A DNA stretch of 64,000 bases from Patescibacteria group bacterium (lineage in GTDB: Bacteria > Patescibacteriota > Microgenomatia > UBA1400 > MFAQ01). A program made the translations under genes and the position numbers. The stretch is from assembly GCA_943355005.1 (NCBI GenBank), contig CALRDV010000002.1:131826-195825 (forward strand). Reading direction: 5' to 3'. Each line of letters begins with the position of its first letter. The first letter of the stretch is position 1. Below the pieces are notes generated by a model. It was not told the origin of the DNA. It did no database searches and saw nothing but the letters and a program-made list of their open reading frames with translations. Shown piece after piece: positions 3,332-16,146 of the stretch.

Positions 3332-3931
3332 ATGACCGAAAAACTCAAAGGCATCGCCGGTTCGATGTTTGCAGGCAAAACAGAAATGTTACTCAAAGAA
3401 ATTTCCCGTGCTGAGTATGCCGGAAAAAAAGTCCAAGTTTTTAAGCCCGCCATCGATACTCGCTGGGAAGCGGGCAGTATCTCCTCTCATTCCGGCGGCA
3501 GTCACGAAGCCACCCCGGTCAATAATTCCTACGAAATTATTGAATATTTAAATCCTGACACATATATGGTCGCTATCGACGAAATTCAATTTTTTGACGC
3601 CGGCATTATTGACGTAGTTCGCTTCCTTCTCGAAGAAGACATTAGGGTAATTTTTGCGGGATTATCACTGGACTTTAGAGCCGAACCATTTGGACCTATG
3701 CCGGAGCTCTTAGCTCTTTGCGACGATATAGATAGACCTACTGCCATATGCAATCAGAACATCGATGGACAAATCTGTGGTGAAGAAGCCACACGGACAC
3801 AAAGATTAATCAATGGCCGACCGGCCAACTACGACGACCCCATCGTCCTTATTGGTGCCTCACAAGAATATCAAGCCCGTTGCCCAAACCACCACAAAGT
3901 CCCCGGTAAACCTCAACCAAAGATAAAATAA
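3332..3931 (+). CDS. tdk: Thymidine kinase
   Basis: P-loop GSMFAGKTE, VAIDEIQFFD, and C-terminal Cys pairs (C..C ... C..H) matching the thymidine kinase zinc ribbon. Confidence 0.85.
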   Translation: MTEKLKGIAGSMFAGKTEMLLKEISRAEYAGKKVQVFKPAIDTRWEAGSISSHSGGSHEATPVNNSYEIIEYLNPDTYMVAIDEIQFFDAGIIDVVRFLLEEDIRVIFAGLSLDFRAEPFGPMPELLALCDDIDRPTAICNQNIDGQICGEEATRTQRLINGRPANYDDPIVLIGASQEYQARCPNHHKVPGKPQPKIK

Positions 3932-3932
3932 C

Positions 3933-5036
3933 CTACTCCAAATAATCCTGAAGTTTCCTTCTACGAGACGGATGTCTAAGTTTACGTAGCGCTTTACTTT
4001 CAATCTGTCTAATTCTTTCTCGAGTAACTCCAAATACTTTACCGACTTCTTCAAGTGTCAGAGGTTTACTTCCGTCCAATCCAAATCTCATTCTGAGAAC
4101 TTTACTTTCGCGTTCAGTCAGAGATCCAAGAGCTTCTTCCAGATTCTCATGCATGAGCTGTCTGGATGTAGCCTCGTATGGAGTCGCTTGTCTTTCGTCA
4201 GGAATAAAGTCCCCCAGTAATGAATCTTCATCATCTCCGATAGGAGTTTCCAGTGAAGTCGTCTTCTGAGCAATCTTTAAAATTTCACGGACCTTTTCCG
4301 GAGTGGTTTCCAGCTCTGCTGCGACCTCTTCATCGGTCGGCTCTCTGCCCAAGTCCTGCATTAATTTACGTTGTGTTCTGATCAATTTGTTGATCGTCTC
4401 CACCATGTGCACCGGAATACGGATAGTTCTGGCTTGGTCGGCAATAGCTCTAGTAATGGCCTGACGAATCCACCAAGTTGCATAAGTCGAAAATTTAAAA
4501 CCCTTCGTCCAATCATATTTTTCTACTGCCCGAATCAAACCCTTGTTACCCTCTTGAATCAAGTCCAGAAAACTCATCCCCCTTCCCATATATTTCTTGG
4601 CAATCGAAACCACAAGTCTGAGATTAGACTTAGTAAGCATGTCCTTAGCTCTTTTGTCTCCTCTTTCCACCTTCTGAGCCAAAGATATTTCTTCATCTCT
4701 TTTTAAGAGAGGAATTCTACCAATCTCTTTAAGATACATTCGGACCGGGTCATTTACCTCAGTGTCTTCCAATTTGGACAATGACTCTAGCTCTTTCTCT
4801 AGGTCACTAGAGGCAGCAGCTATTTCAGCATCCTGGCCGGCCAACACACTCTCAAACACATCAACATCAGCCTTAAAAAGCATTTCATACAAGTAATCCA
4901 AGTCGTTTACTTCGGTCTCAGGGTGAGGAAAATACTCCAAGATATCGTCTTGGGTTACAAATCCCTGTTCCTTACCTAAGGCTAAAATCTCTTTGATTTT
5001 TAGTTGAATGGATAGATCAGTCTTTTTATCGGCCAT
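3933..5036 (-). CDS. rpoD: RNA polymerase sigma factor RpoD (sigma-70 family)
   Basis: Regions 1.2-4.2 are recognisable: [65 protein letters not shown], and C-terminal [31 protein letters not shown]. Confidence 0.95.
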
Positions 5037-5073
5037 AATATTCTCTCCTATTTTAACACAGCTGAAGCCATAA

Positions 5074-7109: not shown

Positions 7110-7859
7110 TTACCTTAACTTGTCCAAGGCTGCGAGGAATTCACCGATTTCGTTAATGACCACAGTTCTCTCAGGCACCTCACCCTCCCTGTACACTGCC
7201 CAAGGACTAGGCATGTAGATTGTTCTCGACCCCAGTTCATCTCCTGGTTTGATATCCCCACTCAAACTATCTCCCACCACCAAACACCTTTCCGGCGCAA
7301 TTTCCATCGCATCCATTCCTCTTTTCCAATCAATCGATTTTTTGTGTCCATTCTCGTCCACAATCACCACAGTTTCGAAATAATTCCACAGACCAAGACT
7401 ATCTAGTTTGAAGTTCGTCCATTCCACATTCGCATGAGTCACTAGTACCATTTTGACTTTAGCTTTCTTCAAAACTTCCAGCGCCACCTTAGCCCCCTCC
7501 CGCATTCTAGGAACAATAGAGTAAATTCTCATTAACATATCTAAATTTTCCACAATCTCAGATTCACTTCCTTCGAATTCCTTTGCCAACTTCTCCACAA
7601 CTACCGCCCATCTTTTGGGGTTTACCCCCATCTTTTTATGTTCCTCATCATTTATGGGTTGTAATGCTCCCATAATTCTATCCTCTCCTACCCCAATCTT
7701 CTCAGCCACTTCCTCGGCATATTCCTGCATGCACTGAATGAATATTTCACTTGTGTAAATCAAGGTATCATCCAAATCGAAAAATACACCATCAACACCT
7801 AATCTTTTAAGTTTTTCTCCCACCGCGTCACAAACAGGATCGTTTTCCAGTTTAAACAT
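7110..7859 (-). CDS. HAD superfamily hydrolase
   Basis: N-terminal FFDLDDTLIY (HAD motif I) and downstream Asp-containing motifs (VVGDSLSGDI). Confidence 0.7.
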   Translation of the reverse strand: MFKLENDPVCDAVGEKLKRLGVDGVFFDLDDTLIYTSEIFIQCMQEYAEEVAEKIGVGEDRIMGALQPINDEEHKKMGVNPKRWAVVVEKLAKEFEGSESEIVENLDMLMRIYSIVPRMREGAKVALEVLKKAKVKMVLVTHANVEWTNFKLDSLGLWNYFETVVIVDENGHKKSIDWKRGMDAMEIAPERCLVVGDSLSGDIKPGDELGSRTIYMPSPWAVYREGEVPERTVVINEIGEFLAALDKLR

Positions 7860-7897
7860 GCCATATTCTACACCCAGAAACTAAAGAAAATTAATTG

Positions 7898-8060
7898 TGT
7901 ACCCGGTGCGATTCGAACGCACAACCTCGACCTGAGGGGTCTGAGATATTTTTAGAATTATCAATATCTCCCTTGAGGAGATATTGGTAATTAATTTGCA
8001 AAAATATCGAAGAATGCCGGAACCGATCTCGTAACGAGCTCGGTGAGGCGGGGGTGAAGG
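7898..8060 (-). pseudogene. tRNA-Arg-like 3' fragment fused to a degenerate copy of the hairpin repeat element (pseudo-tRNA / chimeric element)
   Basis: The ~31 nt GGTTGTGCGTTCGAATCGCACCGGGTACAC, equal to the T-arm plus 3' acceptor strand of the adjacent tRNA-Arg(CCG), is present. Upstream of it no D-arm or normal anticodon arm can be folded. Instead there is an 8-bp palindrome (ATATCTCC CTTGA GGAGATAT) and a hairpin, CCGAGCTCG-TTA-CGAGATCGG, homologous to the hairpin of the elements at 10489-10854. Confidence 0.45.
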
Positions 8061-8106
8061 TAAAGACGAAGTCTTTAATCCTGAACACAACTAAAAAAAC
8101 TATTTG

Positions 8107-8180
8107 TGTACCCGGTGCGATTCGAACGCACAACCACTTCCTTCGGAGGGAAGTACTCTATCCAGTTGAGCTACGGATAC
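8107..8180 (-). tRNA. tRNA-Arg (anticodon CCG)
   Basis: The reverse complement is GTATCCGTAGCTCAACTGGATAGAGTACTTCCCTCCGAAGGAAGTGGTTGTGCGTTCGAATCGCACCGGGTACA, with anticodon loop CTCCGAA. Confidence 0.8.
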
Positions 8181-8194
8181 ATACAGGTATTATC

Positions 8195-8524
8195 TCACTC
8201 CCCCTTTTTATTCCACACCCTTTTATTATTTATTTCCTCTTTCTCCCGGAACGCCTTCTCAGCATCTATGTTTAAATGGTTAGCCAAATCAATCACATAG
8301 CTAAATACATCAGCCCATTCATGATCTAACTCCATCTTCTCCGAATTATCATCAGTATGCATTTTGGTATATTGTCTCGCAGCTTTAGCGAGCTCTCCAA
8401 CTTCTTCAGAAAGATACATAAACAGTTCAGGGACCGTTGTGTCAGTAAAGTCTCTCTCAATCACCATCTCATTTATATACTCCTGATAATCTCCCAAAGA
8501 CGCTTTATCTTTAATTTTCTTCAT
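8195..8524 (-). CDS. MazG-like nucleotide pyrophosphohydrolase domain protein
   Basis: 109 aa with the EEVGELAKAARQY ... E..DV pattern of the all-alpha NTP-PPase (MazG) fold. Confidence 0.6.
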   Translation of the reverse strand: MKKIKDKASLGDYQEYINEMVIERDFTDTTVPELFMYLSEEVGELAKAARQYTKMHTDDNSEKMELDHEWADVFSYVIDLANHLNIDAEKAFREKEEINNKRVWNKKGE

Positions 8525-8568
8525 ACATCAAAAATTATTATATTTAGCCGGGTCTATCCACCGGTGGG

Positions 8569-8650
8569 CGGAGGATACAGGAGTCGAACCTGTTAGCCCA
8601 AAAGGGCATTGGTTTTCGAAACCAACGCATTACCGTCCTGCCCATCCTCC
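8569..8650 (-). tRNA. tRNA-Ser (anticodon CGA), type II
   Basis: The reverse complement is GGAGGATGGGCAGGACGGTAATGCGTTGGTTTCGAAAACCAATGCCCTTTTGGGCTAACAGGTTCGACTCCTGTATCCTCCG, with anticodon loop TTCGAAA and a long variable arm. Confidence 0.8.
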
Positions 8651-8693
8651 ATCGACTCGCCGTAGCTTTAGCAGAGGCGGTCATCGACATTTG

Positions 8694-8768
8694 TGAGCCC
8701 GGTGCGACTCGAACGCACGACCTCCTCCTTCGCAGGGAGGCGCTCTAATCCAACTGAGCTACGGACTC
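8694..8768 (-). tRNA. tRNA-Arg (anticodon GCG as read; could be ACG-type isoacceptor)
   Basis: The reverse complement is GAGTCCGTAGCTCAGTTGGATTAGAGCGCCTCCCTGCGAAGGAGGAGGTCGTGCGTTCGAGTCGCACCGGGCTCA, with anticodon loop CTGCGAA. Confidence 0.75.
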
Positions 8769-8806
8769 ATACGAGCTCTATTTTATCATCCTACGGGTCT
8801 TTCTCC

Positions 8807-9307
8807 TCATTCCAAGGGCATCTTCTCTCCCGCCCATTTCAAAGCTCTGTCTACCCAGGTCACAGCCGGCTCCTGGTATATCACCTTTTCTAACATCAAA
8901 TTCTTAATTTCATCCTCCTTTTTAGGATCAATTACCACCACCAAATGCCATGGAACGATAGATAGATTTATCCTCATGAGCCTAGTACCCCACTTAGTCT
9001 CAAACCAAAAATTAGTCATCTCTTCATACCTGTAAGTCTTCTCTGTCGATTTTAATCCCCAAGAAGTCAAAGCTGTTTTTATCATCTTCGGTTCAGTCTT
9101 GGCCATGGCCCAAAGCATGAATACAAGCGCCCAAATAACCACTACGGGCATCAGACCCTCAATAAAGTACATAATTATAGACACGAGGAAAGCAATCACG
9201 ATTACGGAACTGTAAAATTCTTTCGTCCAAACTTTATGAGGCCTATCATATGCCTCAAATTCCAAAAGTTCTTTTTCACTGAAATCTAAAGTGTCGGTTT
9301 TAGCCAC
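8807..9307 (-). CDS. Hypothetical membrane protein
   Basis: 166 aa with two central hydrophobic helices (VIVIAFLVSIIMYFIEGLMPVVVIWALVFMLWAM). Confidence 0.4.
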   Translation of the reverse strand: MAKTDTLDFSEKELLEFEAYDRPHKVWTKEFYSSVIVIAFLVSIIMYFIEGLMPVVVIWALVFMLWAMAKTEPKMIKTALTSWGLKSTEKTYRYEEMTNFWFETKWGTRLMRINLSIVPWHLVVVIDPKKEDEIKNLMLEKVIYQEPAVTWVDRALKWAGEKMPLE

Positions 9308-9329
9308 ATTTCATCTTAGCATAAGGCTC

Positions 9330-10085
9330 TCAAAGTAACTTAAATGAAAACTGTGCATCAGATATCACAGATTCGTTGTCCGGCCAAGTTACCATTGGAC
9401 CCGATGCAGTAGCCGCGTAACCATAACCTTTATTGACCGTAATTAAACTTCTACGCCTCATGTCGACCCCACCTACCACATAGTTTCCACCTATCAAATA
9501 ATAAGGTTGGCCTTTTAAGTAAAACAAAGAATCATTTTCAAATACAAAATCAGGAAAATCTTTTGATGTTTTATCTTTAATACTTTTAATTTGATCTGAC
9601 AAAGAACTCTCCTCAACGTTGCGTTTTTCCACAGTTAAGATTGTCGCATAATTAATATTTCCAATTGTTTTTGTAGTTGGATTCAGAAATATCACGATGG
9701 CTCCTGTTTTACCGGTTTCATCTAGCTGCCACCCTGACGGAGGAGTAATTTGAAAACCCTCTTTTTCATTTTTATAAATTCCTCCCCCAATTACACCACT
9801 TTCAGTTGATTGTGAATTGTTTAAGGTGACTACTTGGTTCTTGTTAGTACTAGTCTTTGTAGGCATCGTAATCTCTAGGTCAGGAGCCTCACCCGTCCCT
9901 CTTAGCATAACAATAATAATTAACAACACAACAGGACCAATCCCTAAATATACCAACCATCTCCATGGAATCTTTTTGGAAGGCACCTTTTCAGTTTCCG
10001 TATTCTTCTCTACAAATACCGGAATATCCACTAATACTTGCTGATTTTTTTCACCCTCTTTCTGAATTATATTTTCGAGCTCCAT
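9330..10085 (-). CDS. Hypothetical membrane-anchored protein
   Basis: 251 aa with an N-terminal TM helix (WRWLVYLGIGPVVLLIIIVML), then a Thr-rich linker and a globular domain. No motif recognised. Confidence 0.4.
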   Translation of the reverse strand: MELENIIQKEGEKNQQVLVDIPVFVEKNTETEKVPSKKIPWRWLVYLGIGPVVLLIIIVMLRGTGEAPDLEITMPTKTSTNKNQVVTLNNSQSTESGVIGGGIYKNEKEGFQITPPSGWQLDETGKTGAIVIFLNPTTKTIGNINYATILTVEKRNVEESSLSDQIKSIKDKTSKDFPDFVFENDSLFYLKGQPYYLIGGNYVVGGVDMRRRSLITVNKGYGYAATASGPMVTWPDNESVISDAQFSFKLL

Positions 10086-10127
10086 AACTTCAGTTTAAAC
10101 CATCTGGGCGGACCTGTCCGCCGGTAG

Positions 10128-10212
10128 GCGGAGGGGGCGGGATTCGAACCCGCGGTATCTTGCGATACGGAGGTTTAGTAAACCTCTGCACTCGACCACT
10201 ATGCGACCCCTC
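10128..10212 (-). tRNA. Type II (long variable arm) tRNA with atypical anticodon loop, reading ACU with a canonical 5-bp stem. Identity uncertain: Ser/Leu-like, or a pseudogene.
   Basis: The reverse complement is GGAGGGGTCGCATAGTGGTCGAGTGCAGAGGTTTACTAAACCTCCGTATCGCAAGATACCGCGGGTTCGAATCCCGCCCCCTCCG. Acceptor, D-arm, long variable arm and T-arm are good. The anticodon stem GAGGT/ACCTC encloses loop TTACTAA. Confidence 0.55.
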
Positions 10213-10217
10213 CACGG

Positions 10218-10299
10218 GCGGAGAGTACAGGGGTCGAACCTGTTAGGGCTTACGCCCATTAGTTTTCAAGACTAACGCATTACCGTCCTGCCCACTCTC
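10218..10299 (-). tRNA. tRNA-Ser (anticodon TGA), type II
   Basis: The reverse complement is GGAGAGTGGGCAGGACGGTAATGCGTTAGTCTTGAAAACTAATGGGCGTAAGCCCTAACAGGTTCGACCCCTGTACTCTCCG, with anticodon loop CTTGAAA. Confidence 0.8.
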
Positions 10300-10359
10300 C
10301 GTGTGTGCTTATTTTACCATTCCAAGTGCCTCTACTGGTAAAATAACTCTTGATCGTGA

Positions 10360-10441
10360 TGGAGGCGTCCGATAGTGGTTATTCGAGCGGGTTGCTAACC
10401 CGCGGCCCAAAAGGCCTCGTGGGTTCGAATCCCACCGCCTC
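10360..10441 (+). tRNA. tRNA-Ser (anticodon GCT), type II
   Basis: GGAGGCGTCCGATAGTGGTTATTCGAGCGGGTTGCTAACCCGCGGCCCAAAAGGCCTCGTGGGTTCGAATCCCACCGCCTCCG, with anticodon loop TTGCTAA. Confidence 0.8.
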
Positions 10442-10488
10442 CGCAAATTAAGTCTATTCGCCTTGCGCGAGTAGACTTAAATTTCGTT

Positions 10489-10592
10489 CGTGGGATTCGA
10501 ACAAGCCGGAACTAGTTTCGTAACGAACCTAGTGAGGCAGGTCTTGAGGCACCGAAGGTGACCGAAAGCGAATCCTTCTCCCACCGCCTCCG
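10489..10592 (+). repeat. tRNA-derived structured element, copy A (104 nt; possible small ncRNA)
   Basis: It starts with GTGGGATTCGAAC, the reverse complement of a T-arm. It ends with GCGAATCCTTCTCCCACCGCCTCCGC, whose last 14 nt are identical to the 3' end of tRNA-Ser(GCT), i.e. T-stem 3' strand + acceptor 3' strand + discriminator. It has an internal hairpin CTAG-T-TTCG-TAA-CGAA-C-CTAG and a duplicated heptamer TGAGGCA. It is followed by a strong bidirectional terminator. Confidence 0.6.
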
Positions 10593-10593
10593 C

Positions 10594-10637
10594 TAAAAAT
10601 AAATGTCCTCGCTTGTCGGGGACATTTATTTTTACCT
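10594..10637. terminator. Bidirectional rho-independent terminator
   Basis: A 14-bp perfect stem, AAAAATAAATGTCC / GGACATTTATTTTT, flanked by A-run and T-run. Confidence 0.7.
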
Positions 10638-10639
10638 TA

Positions 10640-10734
10640 AGTGGGATTCGAGTGACGGAGGCAAGCTCGTAACGATCTTGCCGAGTCCGGTACGAGCAAA
10701 ACTTCAGCAGAAGTTTATGCGAGAAAATCCCACC
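10640..10734 (+). repeat. tRNA-derived structured element, divergent copy C (~95 nt)
   Basis: It starts GTGGGATTCGAG and ends GCGAGAAAATCCCACCG followed by T7. It contains the conserved hairpin with compensatory substitutions (GGCAAG-C-TCG-TAA-CGA-T-CTTGCC) and a second 7-bp hairpin (AAACTTC AGCA GAAGTTT). Confidence 0.5.
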
Positions 10735-10750
10735 GATTTTTTTATTGCCA

Positions 10751-10854
10751 TGTGGGATTCGAACGAGTCGGAAGCAGTTTTGTAACAAACCTGCTGAGAC
10801 AGGTCCTGAGACACAGCAGGTGACCGAAGGCGAATCCTTCCCCCACCGCCTCCG
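10751..10854 (+). repeat. tRNA-derived structured element, copy B (104 nt)
   Basis: It is collinear with copy A at ~85% identity. The hairpin stems show compensatory changes (GCAG-T-TTTG-TAA-CAAA-C-CTGC). The duplicated heptamer is TGAGACA in both repeats, a concerted G-to-A change relative to copy A. The 3' end, CCCACCGCCTCCGC, is identical. Confidence 0.6.
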
Positions 10855-10915
10855 CAATAGAAAATTCTCGCGACACGTCCTTGCCTATTCTTTTTTTATT
10901 TGAGAAGATAAGTTA

Positions 10916-11704
10916 ATGAATTCTCGATCACAATTCTTCAAAAAGCTAGATATCTTCCTCCTAATTATTTTTCCAATATTTTCCGTCTTAATCTCACTTA
11001 CCTTAAAATCCAATTTTCTTACCTCCATTCTCTTGTTTTACGGACTTCCTTCGCTATGGTTATCACTAAGAACTCCAAACAGAGTAGCCAAAACTCTTAT
11101 TTTTACTTCCTTGCTTACACCCCCGTTTGGTCTTATTGTCGACTACATAGAAACAATTAATCACTCTTGGTTTATACCTCAGACCTCTTTCTCTTTTCGT
11201 GTTTTTGGAGTAATCCCAATCGAAGATCTAATTTGGGGTTTTTTTGTAGTTTACAGCACAATTATTTTTTACGAACATTTCCTAGATAAAGGGAAACATC
11301 AGCTCGTCGACAAGAGACTTAAGTTTCTTATATGGCCGTTATTTTCTGCATTGACAATATTTCTTGTCACATTAACTTCCAATCCAGACATCTTTATTTT
11401 CAAATACGCCTACCTGTGGCTCGGTTTACTTTTAGTATTTATTCCTTCCGTTACGTTTCTCTCTTTTTTTCCTCGCCTAATTTCAAAATATATCAAAACC
11501 GCCTCATATTTCTTTATTCTTTCCTTGTTGTTCGAGCTCACAGCACTTCAATTAAACCAGTGGACCTTCCCAGGAAACAACTTTATCGGCTGGGTACAAA
11601 TGTTTGGTTTTAAAATCCCCTTGGAAGAATTCTTCTTTTTCTTCATAATGACTTCTATCGGAATTCTCTCATATTACGAATTTTTCGACGACGACAGAAA
11701 ATAA
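10916..11704 (+). CDS. Polytopic membrane protein, hypothetical
   Basis: 262 aa with ~7 predicted TM segments. No catalytic motif recognised. Confidence 0.45.
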   Translation: MNSRSQFFKKLDIFLLIIFPIFSVLISLTLKSNFLTSILLFYGLPSLWLSLRTPNRVAKTLIFTSLLTPPFGLIVDYIETINHSWFIPQTSFSFRVFGVIPIEDLIWGFFVVYSTIIFYEHFLDKGKHQLVDKRLKFLIWPLFSALTIFLVTLTSNPDIFIFKYAYLWLGLLLVFIPSVTFLSFFPRLISKYIKTASYFFILSLLFELTALQLNQWTFPGNNFIGWVQMFGFKIPLEEFFFFFIMTSIGILSYYEFFDDDRK

Positions 11705-15694: not shown

Positions 15695-16109
15695 GGGGAC
15701 GACAGGATTCGATGGGATAGTACGTTTACAGTTGCAAGCCTCCTTTGGTAATAGGAGTCAAAAAGACCAAAAAATACTTGTCAATAAAGAAGACAAAATA
15801 CTTGGTTTCATCTCTAGTGGAGTTAAATCCCTTTTTGGTGAAGTCAAATCTTCCGCTCCCGTTTACGCTTTTGCCTAAATAGTAGCTTTGAAGACGTCTT
15901 GAGAGCCAGCGGATCCCGGGCTTCTCACAAGGCGAAAAAATACCGGATTGAATGCTTCAGGTTTGATTTAGGCCTGAGGACTAACTTTTCTAAATCGACC
16001 ATAAGGTGTTCTTGTTTGCCTGAAGCTTTATGGAAAATCGGCAAACTACGCTTGTAGACTCTGTAGGCTTAATATTTCAGACGAGAGTTCAATTCTCTCC
16101 GTCTCCACA
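15695..16109 (+). ncRNA. ssrA: tmRNA (SsrA), ~413 nt
   Basis: The 5' end GGGGACGACAGGATTCGATGGGA pairs with the 3' end CGTCTCC-A-CA to form a tRNA-like acceptor stem. The 3' T-arm is GAGAGTTCAATTCTCTC. The internal tag reading frame ends ...SSAPVYAFA followed by TAA TAG. It lies immediately downstream of smpB and is followed by a terminator hairpin. Confidence 0.8.
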
Positions 16110-16113
16110 TAAA

Positions 16114-16146
16114 ACAAAGACCCTTCCTTGTGAGGGGTCTTTGTTT
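16114..16146. terminator. Bidirectional terminator hairpin
   Basis: CAAAGACCC-TTCCTTGTGA-GGGGTCTTTG followed by TTT. It sits between the ssrA 3' end and the stop of the convergent 649-aa gene. Confidence 0.6.

Follow-up and report, generated by a model that had tools for sequence, protein, structure and literature searches.

Structured elements of about 100 nt behind tRNA and tmRNA genes of Patescibacteria: a possible analogue of the E. coli RtT RNA

A stretch of 64,000 nt from a Patescibacteria group bacterium (contig CALRDV010000002.1), referred to below as the window, carries four copies, A to D, of a structured element located at tRNA genes. They belong to an apparently uncatalogued family of three-armed elements of ~95-110 nt, whose hosts are candidate-phyla-radiation-type (Microgenomates-like) bacteria. 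Copies A, C and B, in this order, are a tandem array behind the gene for tRNA-Ser(GCT), and D is a diverged relative of them at the gene for tRNA-Arg(CCG). We read the family as an old, multi-copy group of structured RNAs linked to tRNA trailers and analogous to the RtT RNA of the E. coli tyrT locus, a reading to which we give about an even chance.

Position behind tRNA and tmRNA genes

Members of the family were sought with a core pattern of 19 fixed bases, CGGAR-N6-TYGTAACRA-N-C-N4-YGAG, and with a covariance model, R1, derived from an alignment (A2) of 56 distinct canonical copies. The core has four matches in the window, all on the + strand (at 8018, 10507, 10656 and 10769), zero being expected from 100 shuffles. 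It also matches 81 metagenome contig stretches, some contigs carrying several matches, and R1 yields 121 hits (93 distinct) across the 610 kb of loci that were fetched (given as L numbers below). In an 18-locus subset, 26 of the 47 R1 hits do not match the core pattern. A control pattern, which is one N shorter than the core, has an equal number of fixed bases and matches none of A-D, gave 3 unstructured chance matches in 596 Gb of genomes, one of them in coding sequence, a number that says nothing on the distribution in GTDB.

A same-strand tRNA gene directly precedes 55 of the 93 distinct copies, and none (0 of 93) is preceded by one on the opposite strand; 10 of the others are located behind another element, 8 at contig edges and 20 at neither of these, at least 6 of the last being of the D type described below. 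The upstream tRNAs represent 14 amino-acid types. From the end of the tRNA to the start of the element the median distance is 43 nt (interquartile range 41-45 nt), and this gap contains an A-run, a hairpin with the loop CYTTGYG and a T-run, the element beginning a few nt past the U-tract. Counted from the side of the tRNA, an element follows 64 of the 156 distinct genes for which 200 nt or more of downstream sequence was available, in loci that were chosen for carrying it. The association extends to tmRNA: in L088, an element of 69 bits is located 45 nt after the tmRNA gene and has a tail that copies the tmRNA 3' end in degenerate form.

The 3' end of the neighbouring tRNA is also found within the element. 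In 36 of the 55 cases the element terminates in a stretch of 10 nt or more that reproduces the 3' end of its own neighbour tRNA without mismatch, and in 17 the copy comprises at least 18 nt, compared with 0.24% tail matches of at least 10 nt when other tRNAs are taken as the control. The copy usually runs from G57/A58 of the T-loop to the discriminator or one base beyond. Its T-loop and T-stem 3' strand constitute the 3' arm of helix P1, and the continuation, the acceptor 3' strand, is unpaired; the 5' arm of P1 is complementary to the T-loop/T-stem copy and tracks T-loop variants (pair 10-95 is CG 21 times and UA 20 times). An earlier model-made note on this DNA, the original prediction, had taken the whole element to be tRNA-derived. 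This is not supported, as only the 3' ~18-26 nt come from the tRNA and the body is one common P2/P3 module behind 14 tRNA types and tmRNA.

Hairpins with the loop consensus CYTTGYG are found behind tRNA genes, tmRNA genes and elements, at 10448-10480, 10594-10634 and 7956-7992 of the window and in most loci. Of the 70 distinct hairpins of this type in the fetched loci, 47 precede an element. Seen from the elements, almost all family members have a hairpin of the kind at 10448-10480 before them at a constant distance.

The array behind tRNA-Ser(GCT)

The three structured copies by the tRNA cluster are present as originally described, the coordinates given then being one base early (Table 1). 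The 5' ends, recognized at that time as the reverse complement of a T-arm, consist of GTGGGATTCGA, which stands on the + strand at the start of A, C and B (exact matches at 10490, 10641 and 10752). It is also the reverse complement of the tRNA-Ser(GCT) T-arm at 10425-10435, and in the element it is the pairing strand. The last 14 nt of tRNA-Ser(GCT), CCCACCGCCTCCGC, occur exactly three times, in the gene itself (10431-10444) and, as had been noted, at the ends of A (10580-10593) and B (10842-10855), where the chance expectation is ~0.12; in copy C the tRNA 3' end is reduced to CCCACCG. Copies A and B are 82% identical over 118 nt. Neither ARAGORN nor Rfam makes a tRNA call on the copies, in agreement with the statement that they are not tRNAs.

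Copy B is missing from the R1 list because its 2-nt overlap with the match of C suppressed it. Each copy had been said to be followed by a T-run or a terminator, and a strong hairpin with a T-run is indeed found after A, a T-run after C and a weak hairpin with a T-run after B. The hairpin between A and C looks like a terminator, bidirectional in appearance. No Rfam 15 family reaches its threshold on the copies and no description of the family was found in literature searches, both of which fit the suggestion of a novel family of the small-RNA kind. No reading frame is consistently open across the family. A TTG-start open reading frame (ORF) of 126 aa on the minus strand (10477-10857) covers A, C and B; it is spurious, because no frame is conserved family-wide, and could mislead annotation.

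Near the array, a gene for tRNA-Ser with the anticodon ACT (10127-10213, - strand) is found beside tRNA-Ser(TGA) and opposite tRNA-Ser(GCT), and also in L088, L089, L020 and L045. A34 outside tRNA-Arg(ACG) is unusual in bacteria.

Fold and conserved positions

The inner hairpin stems are wholly different between the copies and still complementary: CTAG/CTAG in A, GCAG/CTGC in B, GCAAG/CTTGC in C and CCGA/TCGG in D. The covariation that had been claimed from these stems holds in the wider family. The copies of A2 were set against a hand-drawn three-way junction of the helices P1, P2 and P3, with shuffles and slid partners as controls. Paired cells amount to 88.9%, compared with 70% in shuffles and 23-50% with slid partners, and 381 cells show double changes, compared with 119 in shuffles. 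One P2 pair is found with all four Watson-Crick types (GC 20, UA 15, AU 12, CG 7).

P2 and P3 each contain, 3 bp away from the junction, an internal loop with tandem G.A. When the copies found by the model only are included, the conserved positions are CGAA (a junction strand), GNC-G-GA...GA-GN'C at the P2 base, GG(U) linking P2 to P3, and YGA...GAR in P3; the P2 apex, UCGUAACGA, is variable or swapped for a short hairpin in the model-only copies. The conserved unpaired bases are purine-rich on the + strand. The heptamer TGAGRCA, previously regarded as tandemly duplicated in A and B, is rather the same G.A loop motif in two helices: its two copies are 12 nt apart, one in the P2 internal loop (3' side) and the other in that of P3 (5' side). 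Where G has become A in the first heptamer copy, the pairing partner compensates (GCC to GTC); in the second the change is uncompensated.

Copy D and the tRNA-Arg(CCG) repeats

A degenerate fourth copy had been described as fused to a pseudo-tRNA-Arg. The copy exists, as D, but it is not fused to this tRNA-Arg half; it sits between the half and the tRNA-Arg(CCG) gene, with which it is convergent. This is the arrangement of the D subfamily. The gene and its duplicated 3' half bracket D together with its upstream hairpin. The repeat is 32 nt long in the window; in L016 it extends to the anticodon loop and measures 45 nt. In D the P1 region is replaced by CGAAGA...CCTGAAC.

D is found at the same location in at least 8 contigs, with orthologues in L088, L089, L020, L016, L017, L021 and L065. 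Among the orthologues of the four related genomes that were compared, the P2 stems are entirely different and yet complementary and the loops are conserved, a hallmark of selection on the fold. In at least the D lineage, compensatory evolution has kept the structure intact.

The tRNA-Arg(CCG) 3'-half copy on the minus strand is located directly upstream of the start of a HAD hydrolase gene at 7859, contains a short hairpin of its own (GACC CCTCA GGTC) and is conserved in L088, L089, L020, L016, L017 and L065. It may be a processing signal before the hydrolase mRNA, not a dead fragment. In L021 (~3400-3540), L017 and L088 (~1800-1850), the D-type element is separated from the HAD hydrolase gene by tandem GAGTTCTT repeats, which in L021 take the place of the tRNA-Arg half copy.

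Table 1. Copies of the element, their parts and the associated genes and hairpins in the window
Feature	Position	Strand	Description or basis
Duplicated tRNA-Arg(CCG) 3' half	7895-7941	-	32 nt identical to 8104-8135
Hairpin upstream of D	7956-7992	+	16 bp, loop CTTGA
Copy D	8007-8104	+	R1 56.9 bits; P2 (core 8016-8052) and P3 as in the other copies
tRNA-Arg(CCG), anchor gene of D	8106-8180	-	ARAGORN; Rfam
tRNA-Ser(GCT), anchor gene	10361-10444	+	ARAGORN; Rfam tRNA 52.4 bits; pattern search
Terminator-type hairpin of tRNA-Ser(GCT)	10448-10480	+	14 bp, loop CCTTGCG, then ATTT
Copy A	10490-10593	+	R1 88.7 bits; fold; family structure
Copy A, P1 5' arm	10490-10499
Copy A, P2	10505-10538		GCC / G+GA bulge / stem / UAA loop / GA / GGC
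Copy A, P3	10543-10568		with tandem G.A
Copy A, P1 3' arm	10569-10584		CGAATCC, 6-nt bulge, CCCAC
Copy A, junction strands			J1/2 AACAA; J2/3 AGG
Copy A, single-stranded tail	10585-10593		CGCCTCCGC
Hairpin between A and C	10594-10634	+	18 bp, A-rich and T-rich flanks, 94% complementary
Copy C	10641-10735	+	R1 95 bits; fold z-score -5.3
Copy C, P1	10641-10648 with 10726-10733		GTGGGATT pairs with AATCCCAC
Copy C, P2	10654-10687
Copy C, P3	~10691-10724
Copy C, T-run after it	10737-10743
Copy B	10752-10855	+	collinear with A; repeat, core-pattern and tail-pattern matches
Copy B, P1 5' arm	10752-10761
Copy B, P2	10767-10800
Copy B, tail end	10842-10855		CCCACCGCCTCCGC

Relatives and neighbouring features

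The membrane protein encoded downstream of the array (10916-11704) has homologues in Gottesmanbacteria, Roizmanbacteria, Azambacteria and Peribacteraceae, which places the source of the window among the Microgenomates-like bacteria of the candidate phyla radiation. The proteins of the window are singletons. Two syntenic relatives, L088 (with a neighbour protein 94% identical) and L089, were compared with the window. The identity of copies is 0.68 on the same contig, 0.69 on different contigs and 0.72 for the same tRNA type; within-contig similarity is no higher than between-contig similarity, and the family is therefore old and not recently mobile.

Some further observations concern the surroundings of the elements. 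Large serine recombinase genes adjoin tRNA-Ser(GGA) in L089 (1-1196) and L092 (17093-18337), and the window has DnaG at this place. A motif of ~40 nt, GCACAAACCGGTTCYAAGA..TCATMATCAAG, precedes the hairpin located before elements that have tRNA-His-like tails and no adjacent tRNA-His (L062, ~440-490; L070, ~5010-5060); in L070 tRNA-His and the element are 4.6 kb apart, with genes including transposase fragments between them. Behind tRNA-Gln, an RNA whose ends resemble RNase P RNA by eye, with no Rfam hit, is found in L036 (1385-2640, -), L074 (~3620-3706, -), L056 and L034. In L036 it is split in two by an antisense ORF for a hydrolase of 243 aa. A Gln-tailed element is located before this RNase P-like RNA in L074 and after it in L036.

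Comparison with known RNAs and repeats

The closest parallel is the RtT RNA (RF00391, rttR), which belongs to the 178-bp repeats of the E. coli tyrT operon and is not known from outside the enterobacteria. Neither this parallel nor the spread of the family had been part of the original prediction. At the tyrT locus of E. coli MG1655, the tRNA is followed by a spacer of ~55 nt and then by a 5' arm, GGGGAAGGAT, a module and the last 19-20 nt of tRNA-Tyr; there are four such units, in which GGGGAAGGAT pairs with ATCCTTCCCC, and each unit is located behind a tRNA or another unit. The present family shares with RtT the same-strand position behind a tRNA (with a spacer of ~50 nt in RtT), the closing helix, in which a 5' arm is complementary to a copy of the T-loop and the T-stem 3' strand, the extension of this copy to the tRNA 3' end, and the tandem units. 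On the other hand, RtT is bound to one tRNA (Tyr), whereas the present family is associated with at least 14 tRNA types and tmRNA. The elements here are ~100 nt long as compared with ~130 nt, have another internal fold, are located behind an intrinsic terminator, and have no encoded CCA in their tails. With the Rfam RtT model, copy A scores 24.4 bits against a gathering threshold of 45 (E = 0.015 in a 456-nt search), and B, C and D are not listed; genuine E. coli units score 133-137 bits with the same model and at most 7.2 bits, all four of them, with R1. The bodies are not detectably homologous; the family does not therefore belong to RtT, but is either analogous or very distantly related to it.

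Small RNAs are also known to arise from tRNA transcripts, as in the plant dicistronic tRNA-snoRNA genes, which are processed by RNase Z, and the bacterial 3'ETS-leuZ. These examples come in part from references cited in PMC12045711. In both those cases and the present one, a structured small RNA is encoded right behind a tRNA and is presumably released from a common precursor; the known RNAs, however, do not end like the tRNA. Tandem G.A motifs of this kind are reminiscent of the k-turn of box C/D RNAs, with GGA/GA in P2 (including a 1-nt bulge) and GA/GA in P3 conserved, but the family has neither the 3-nt bulge of a k-turn nor single-stranded guide segments, and UGAUGA...CUGA is found in some D-type copies only. 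Intergenic repeats of the REPIN type and miniature inverted-repeat transposable elements are, like the present elements, short, non-coding, multi-copy, structured, near terminators and individually dispensable. The present copies differ from them in being more than a simple hairpin, in their fixed orientation at tRNA 3' ends, in their age and divergence and in their conserved loops. Resemblances to the hammerhead, 5S rRNA, the GTPase centre and helix h44 of 16S rRNA were dropped after comparison by eye, and that to box C/D RNA was set aside. RsaE (24.9 bits), the one hit besides RtT in the Rfam E-value search and likewise weak, is a terminator match.

Interpretation

According to the reading preferred here, the element would be transcribed within a tRNA read-through or trailer transcript. 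No promoter of its own is visible: a sigma-70-like promoter was looked for before A, B, C and D and none was found, and the anchored profile contains no conserved -35/-10. The purine-rich conserved loops might serve as a platform for protein binding or tertiary contacts. The tRNA-end copy would mainly build P1 and provide a tRNA-like 3' boundary, and the tail copy would stay identical by gene conversion with the tRNA gene ~150 nt upstream. The element would thus be a functional analogue of the tyrT RtT RNA.

Several observations weigh against this reading. The transcribed strand is only inferred because the G.U count (43) does not exceed the A.C count (39), an uninformative result. A strong terminator stands between the tRNA and the element, and read-through may therefore be rare. 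The invariance of the 19 core positions in A2 was partly imposed by the search pattern. The copy of the acceptor strand in the tail has no upstream partner in cis, the match being no better than in mismatched controls (p = 0.46); the fold therefore does not explain why the tail is retained, and the same result speaks against the minihelix mimicking tRNA that had been suggested at first. In the D subfamily the tRNA-end repeats play no part in building P1 and the module has the opposite orientation to them, and the repeat is therefore at least partly a feature of the DNA level.

The remaining difficulty is the patchy presence of single copies. Behind tRNA-Ser(GCT), L088 has decayed copies only, namely a C-like copy that is interrupted by a 65-nt insertion and joined to the 3' half of a B-like copy, A being absent, and L089 has no model hit near this gene. 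The tmRNA-linked element is full in L088 (10242-10354), truncated in L089 (10297-10414) and absent from the window, where the tmRNA gene (15695-16108, +) is followed by a terminator hairpin only (16109-16145). No copy at all is present on a named Gottesmanbacteria contig that carries six tRNAs. Individual copies are dispensable and are lost without obvious harm, and they multiply locally as tandem repeats. The hairpin behind the window tmRNA, without any element, indicates that the hairpin belongs to the tRNA or tmRNA gene and that single elements are gained and lost. The upstream hairpin had been considered as a part of the element and was rejected for this reason, similar hairpins being found elsewhere as well.

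A different explanation starts from the DNA. The elements might be miniature or remnant integrative elements at attachment (att) sites in tRNA and tmRNA genes, the repeats corresponding to attL and attR, and the fold might serve recombination, for example as folded single-stranded DNA or as an element-borne RNA. We consider this unlikely, with a small but real chance. Tyrosine integrases that target tRNA genes classically cross over at the T-loop or the anticodon loop. The repeats begin at the T-loop (18-21 nt) or, in the case of tRNA-Arg in L016, at the anticodon loop (45 nt), and an attachment-site origin therefore stays alive. As with attL/attR pairs and cis-mobilizable elements (CIMEs), tmRNA is also targeted, units accumulate in tandem and presence differs between close relatives; moreover, the module is found in either orientation between the repeats, being otherwise fixed relative to the tRNA. 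However, only ~130-150 bp lie between the repeats, and these contain no genes, neither integrase nor cargo in the window, but only a hairpin and the module of ~100 nt. A resident terminator is located between the tRNA and the element, and hence the repeats do not border an insert directly. Two copies from one genome differ as much as two from different genomes, none being near-identical within a genome, so that there was no recent spread, and viral contigs gave 0 hits. One structured module is found behind 14 tRNA types with a matching tail in each case, which a site-specific recombinase cannot yield with the tRNA left intact. The remnant of an integrative element, one of the possibilities listed in the original prediction, is tenable for the origin of the repeats, but does not explain a module that evolves between the D orthologues with compensatory changes preserving its structure.

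The tRNA-end copy might also be an address. Each tRNA or tmRNA would then have an RNA of its own, the single-stranded tail of which matches the acceptor strand of the neighbour and the 5' arm of which is complementary to its T-arm, and a common protein-binding or catalytic module would act specifically on the gene, the transcript or the 5' acceptor strand of that tRNA. This proposal is doubtful and we give it little weight. If true, it would mean an RNA-guided or ribozyme-type system for the expression, processing or protection of tRNA genes, and it would explain the RtT of E. coli too.

By structural analogy, the element could be a new self-cleaving or otherwise catalytic RNA that processes read-through transcripts of tRNA or tmRNA, with two loops near the junction docking as in the hairpin ribozyme. 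The compact core clustered at the junction, the two pseudo-symmetric loops 3 bp from it, the fixed place in tRNA trailers and the many copies per genome would suit such a function, which nevertheless seems decidedly improbable, the argument for it being purely one of structural analogy. Ribozyme families in Rfam, with hammerhead, twister, pistol, hatchet, hairpin and HDV-like RNAs considered, give no hit even at E < 10 (7700-11000 and 10445-10900), the junction strands CGAA, GG and CCGARRG are by eye unlike CUGANGA/GAAA/UH of the hammerhead, and no conserved candidate for a cleavage site is evident.

A cis-regulatory leader or riboswitch for the downstream gene, such as that for the membrane protein at 10916-11704, is largely refuted and retains hardly any probability. 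A same-strand ORF is located within 350 nt in 53 of the 93 copies, several copies are followed by terminator-like hairpins, and three-way junctions are common in aptamers; but the downstream ORFs belong to 61 clusters that are unrelated, the ORF is convergent at 23 copies and lacking at 12, and it is the tRNA upstream that stays constant as a partner. Decayed tRNA pseudogenes or halves of split or permuted tRNAs are refuted for the body of the element, next to no chance being left to them: the 3' ends are tRNA copies, YGTAAC in P2 is like the anticodon loop of tRNA-Tyr and GAATCCTTCCCCCACC in copy B is a typical tRNA-Tyr 3' end, but the tRNA model gives no score on the + strand even at E < 10, the same body is found behind 14 tRNA types, the upstream tRNAs are complete, a 5' acceptor strand is missing, and the P2 apex is replaceable, for which reason a tRNA-Tyr ancestry of P2 (with its GUA loop) was dropped.

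Implications

As a trailer-linked RNA family, the elements would be the first structural analogue of the E. coli RtT repeats outside enterobacteria. They account for 'tRNA 3'-end repeats' and for spurious ORFs in annotation. Candidate-phyla-radiation bacteria have very small genomes with little spare DNA; even so, an element stands behind the 64 of 156 tRNA genes counted above in loci selected for its presence. The comparative data are richer than those for RtT, comprising 14 tRNA types, tmRNA, orthologues, gains and losses, and they make it testable why an RNA carries the 3' end of the neighbouring tRNA and how such copies arise.

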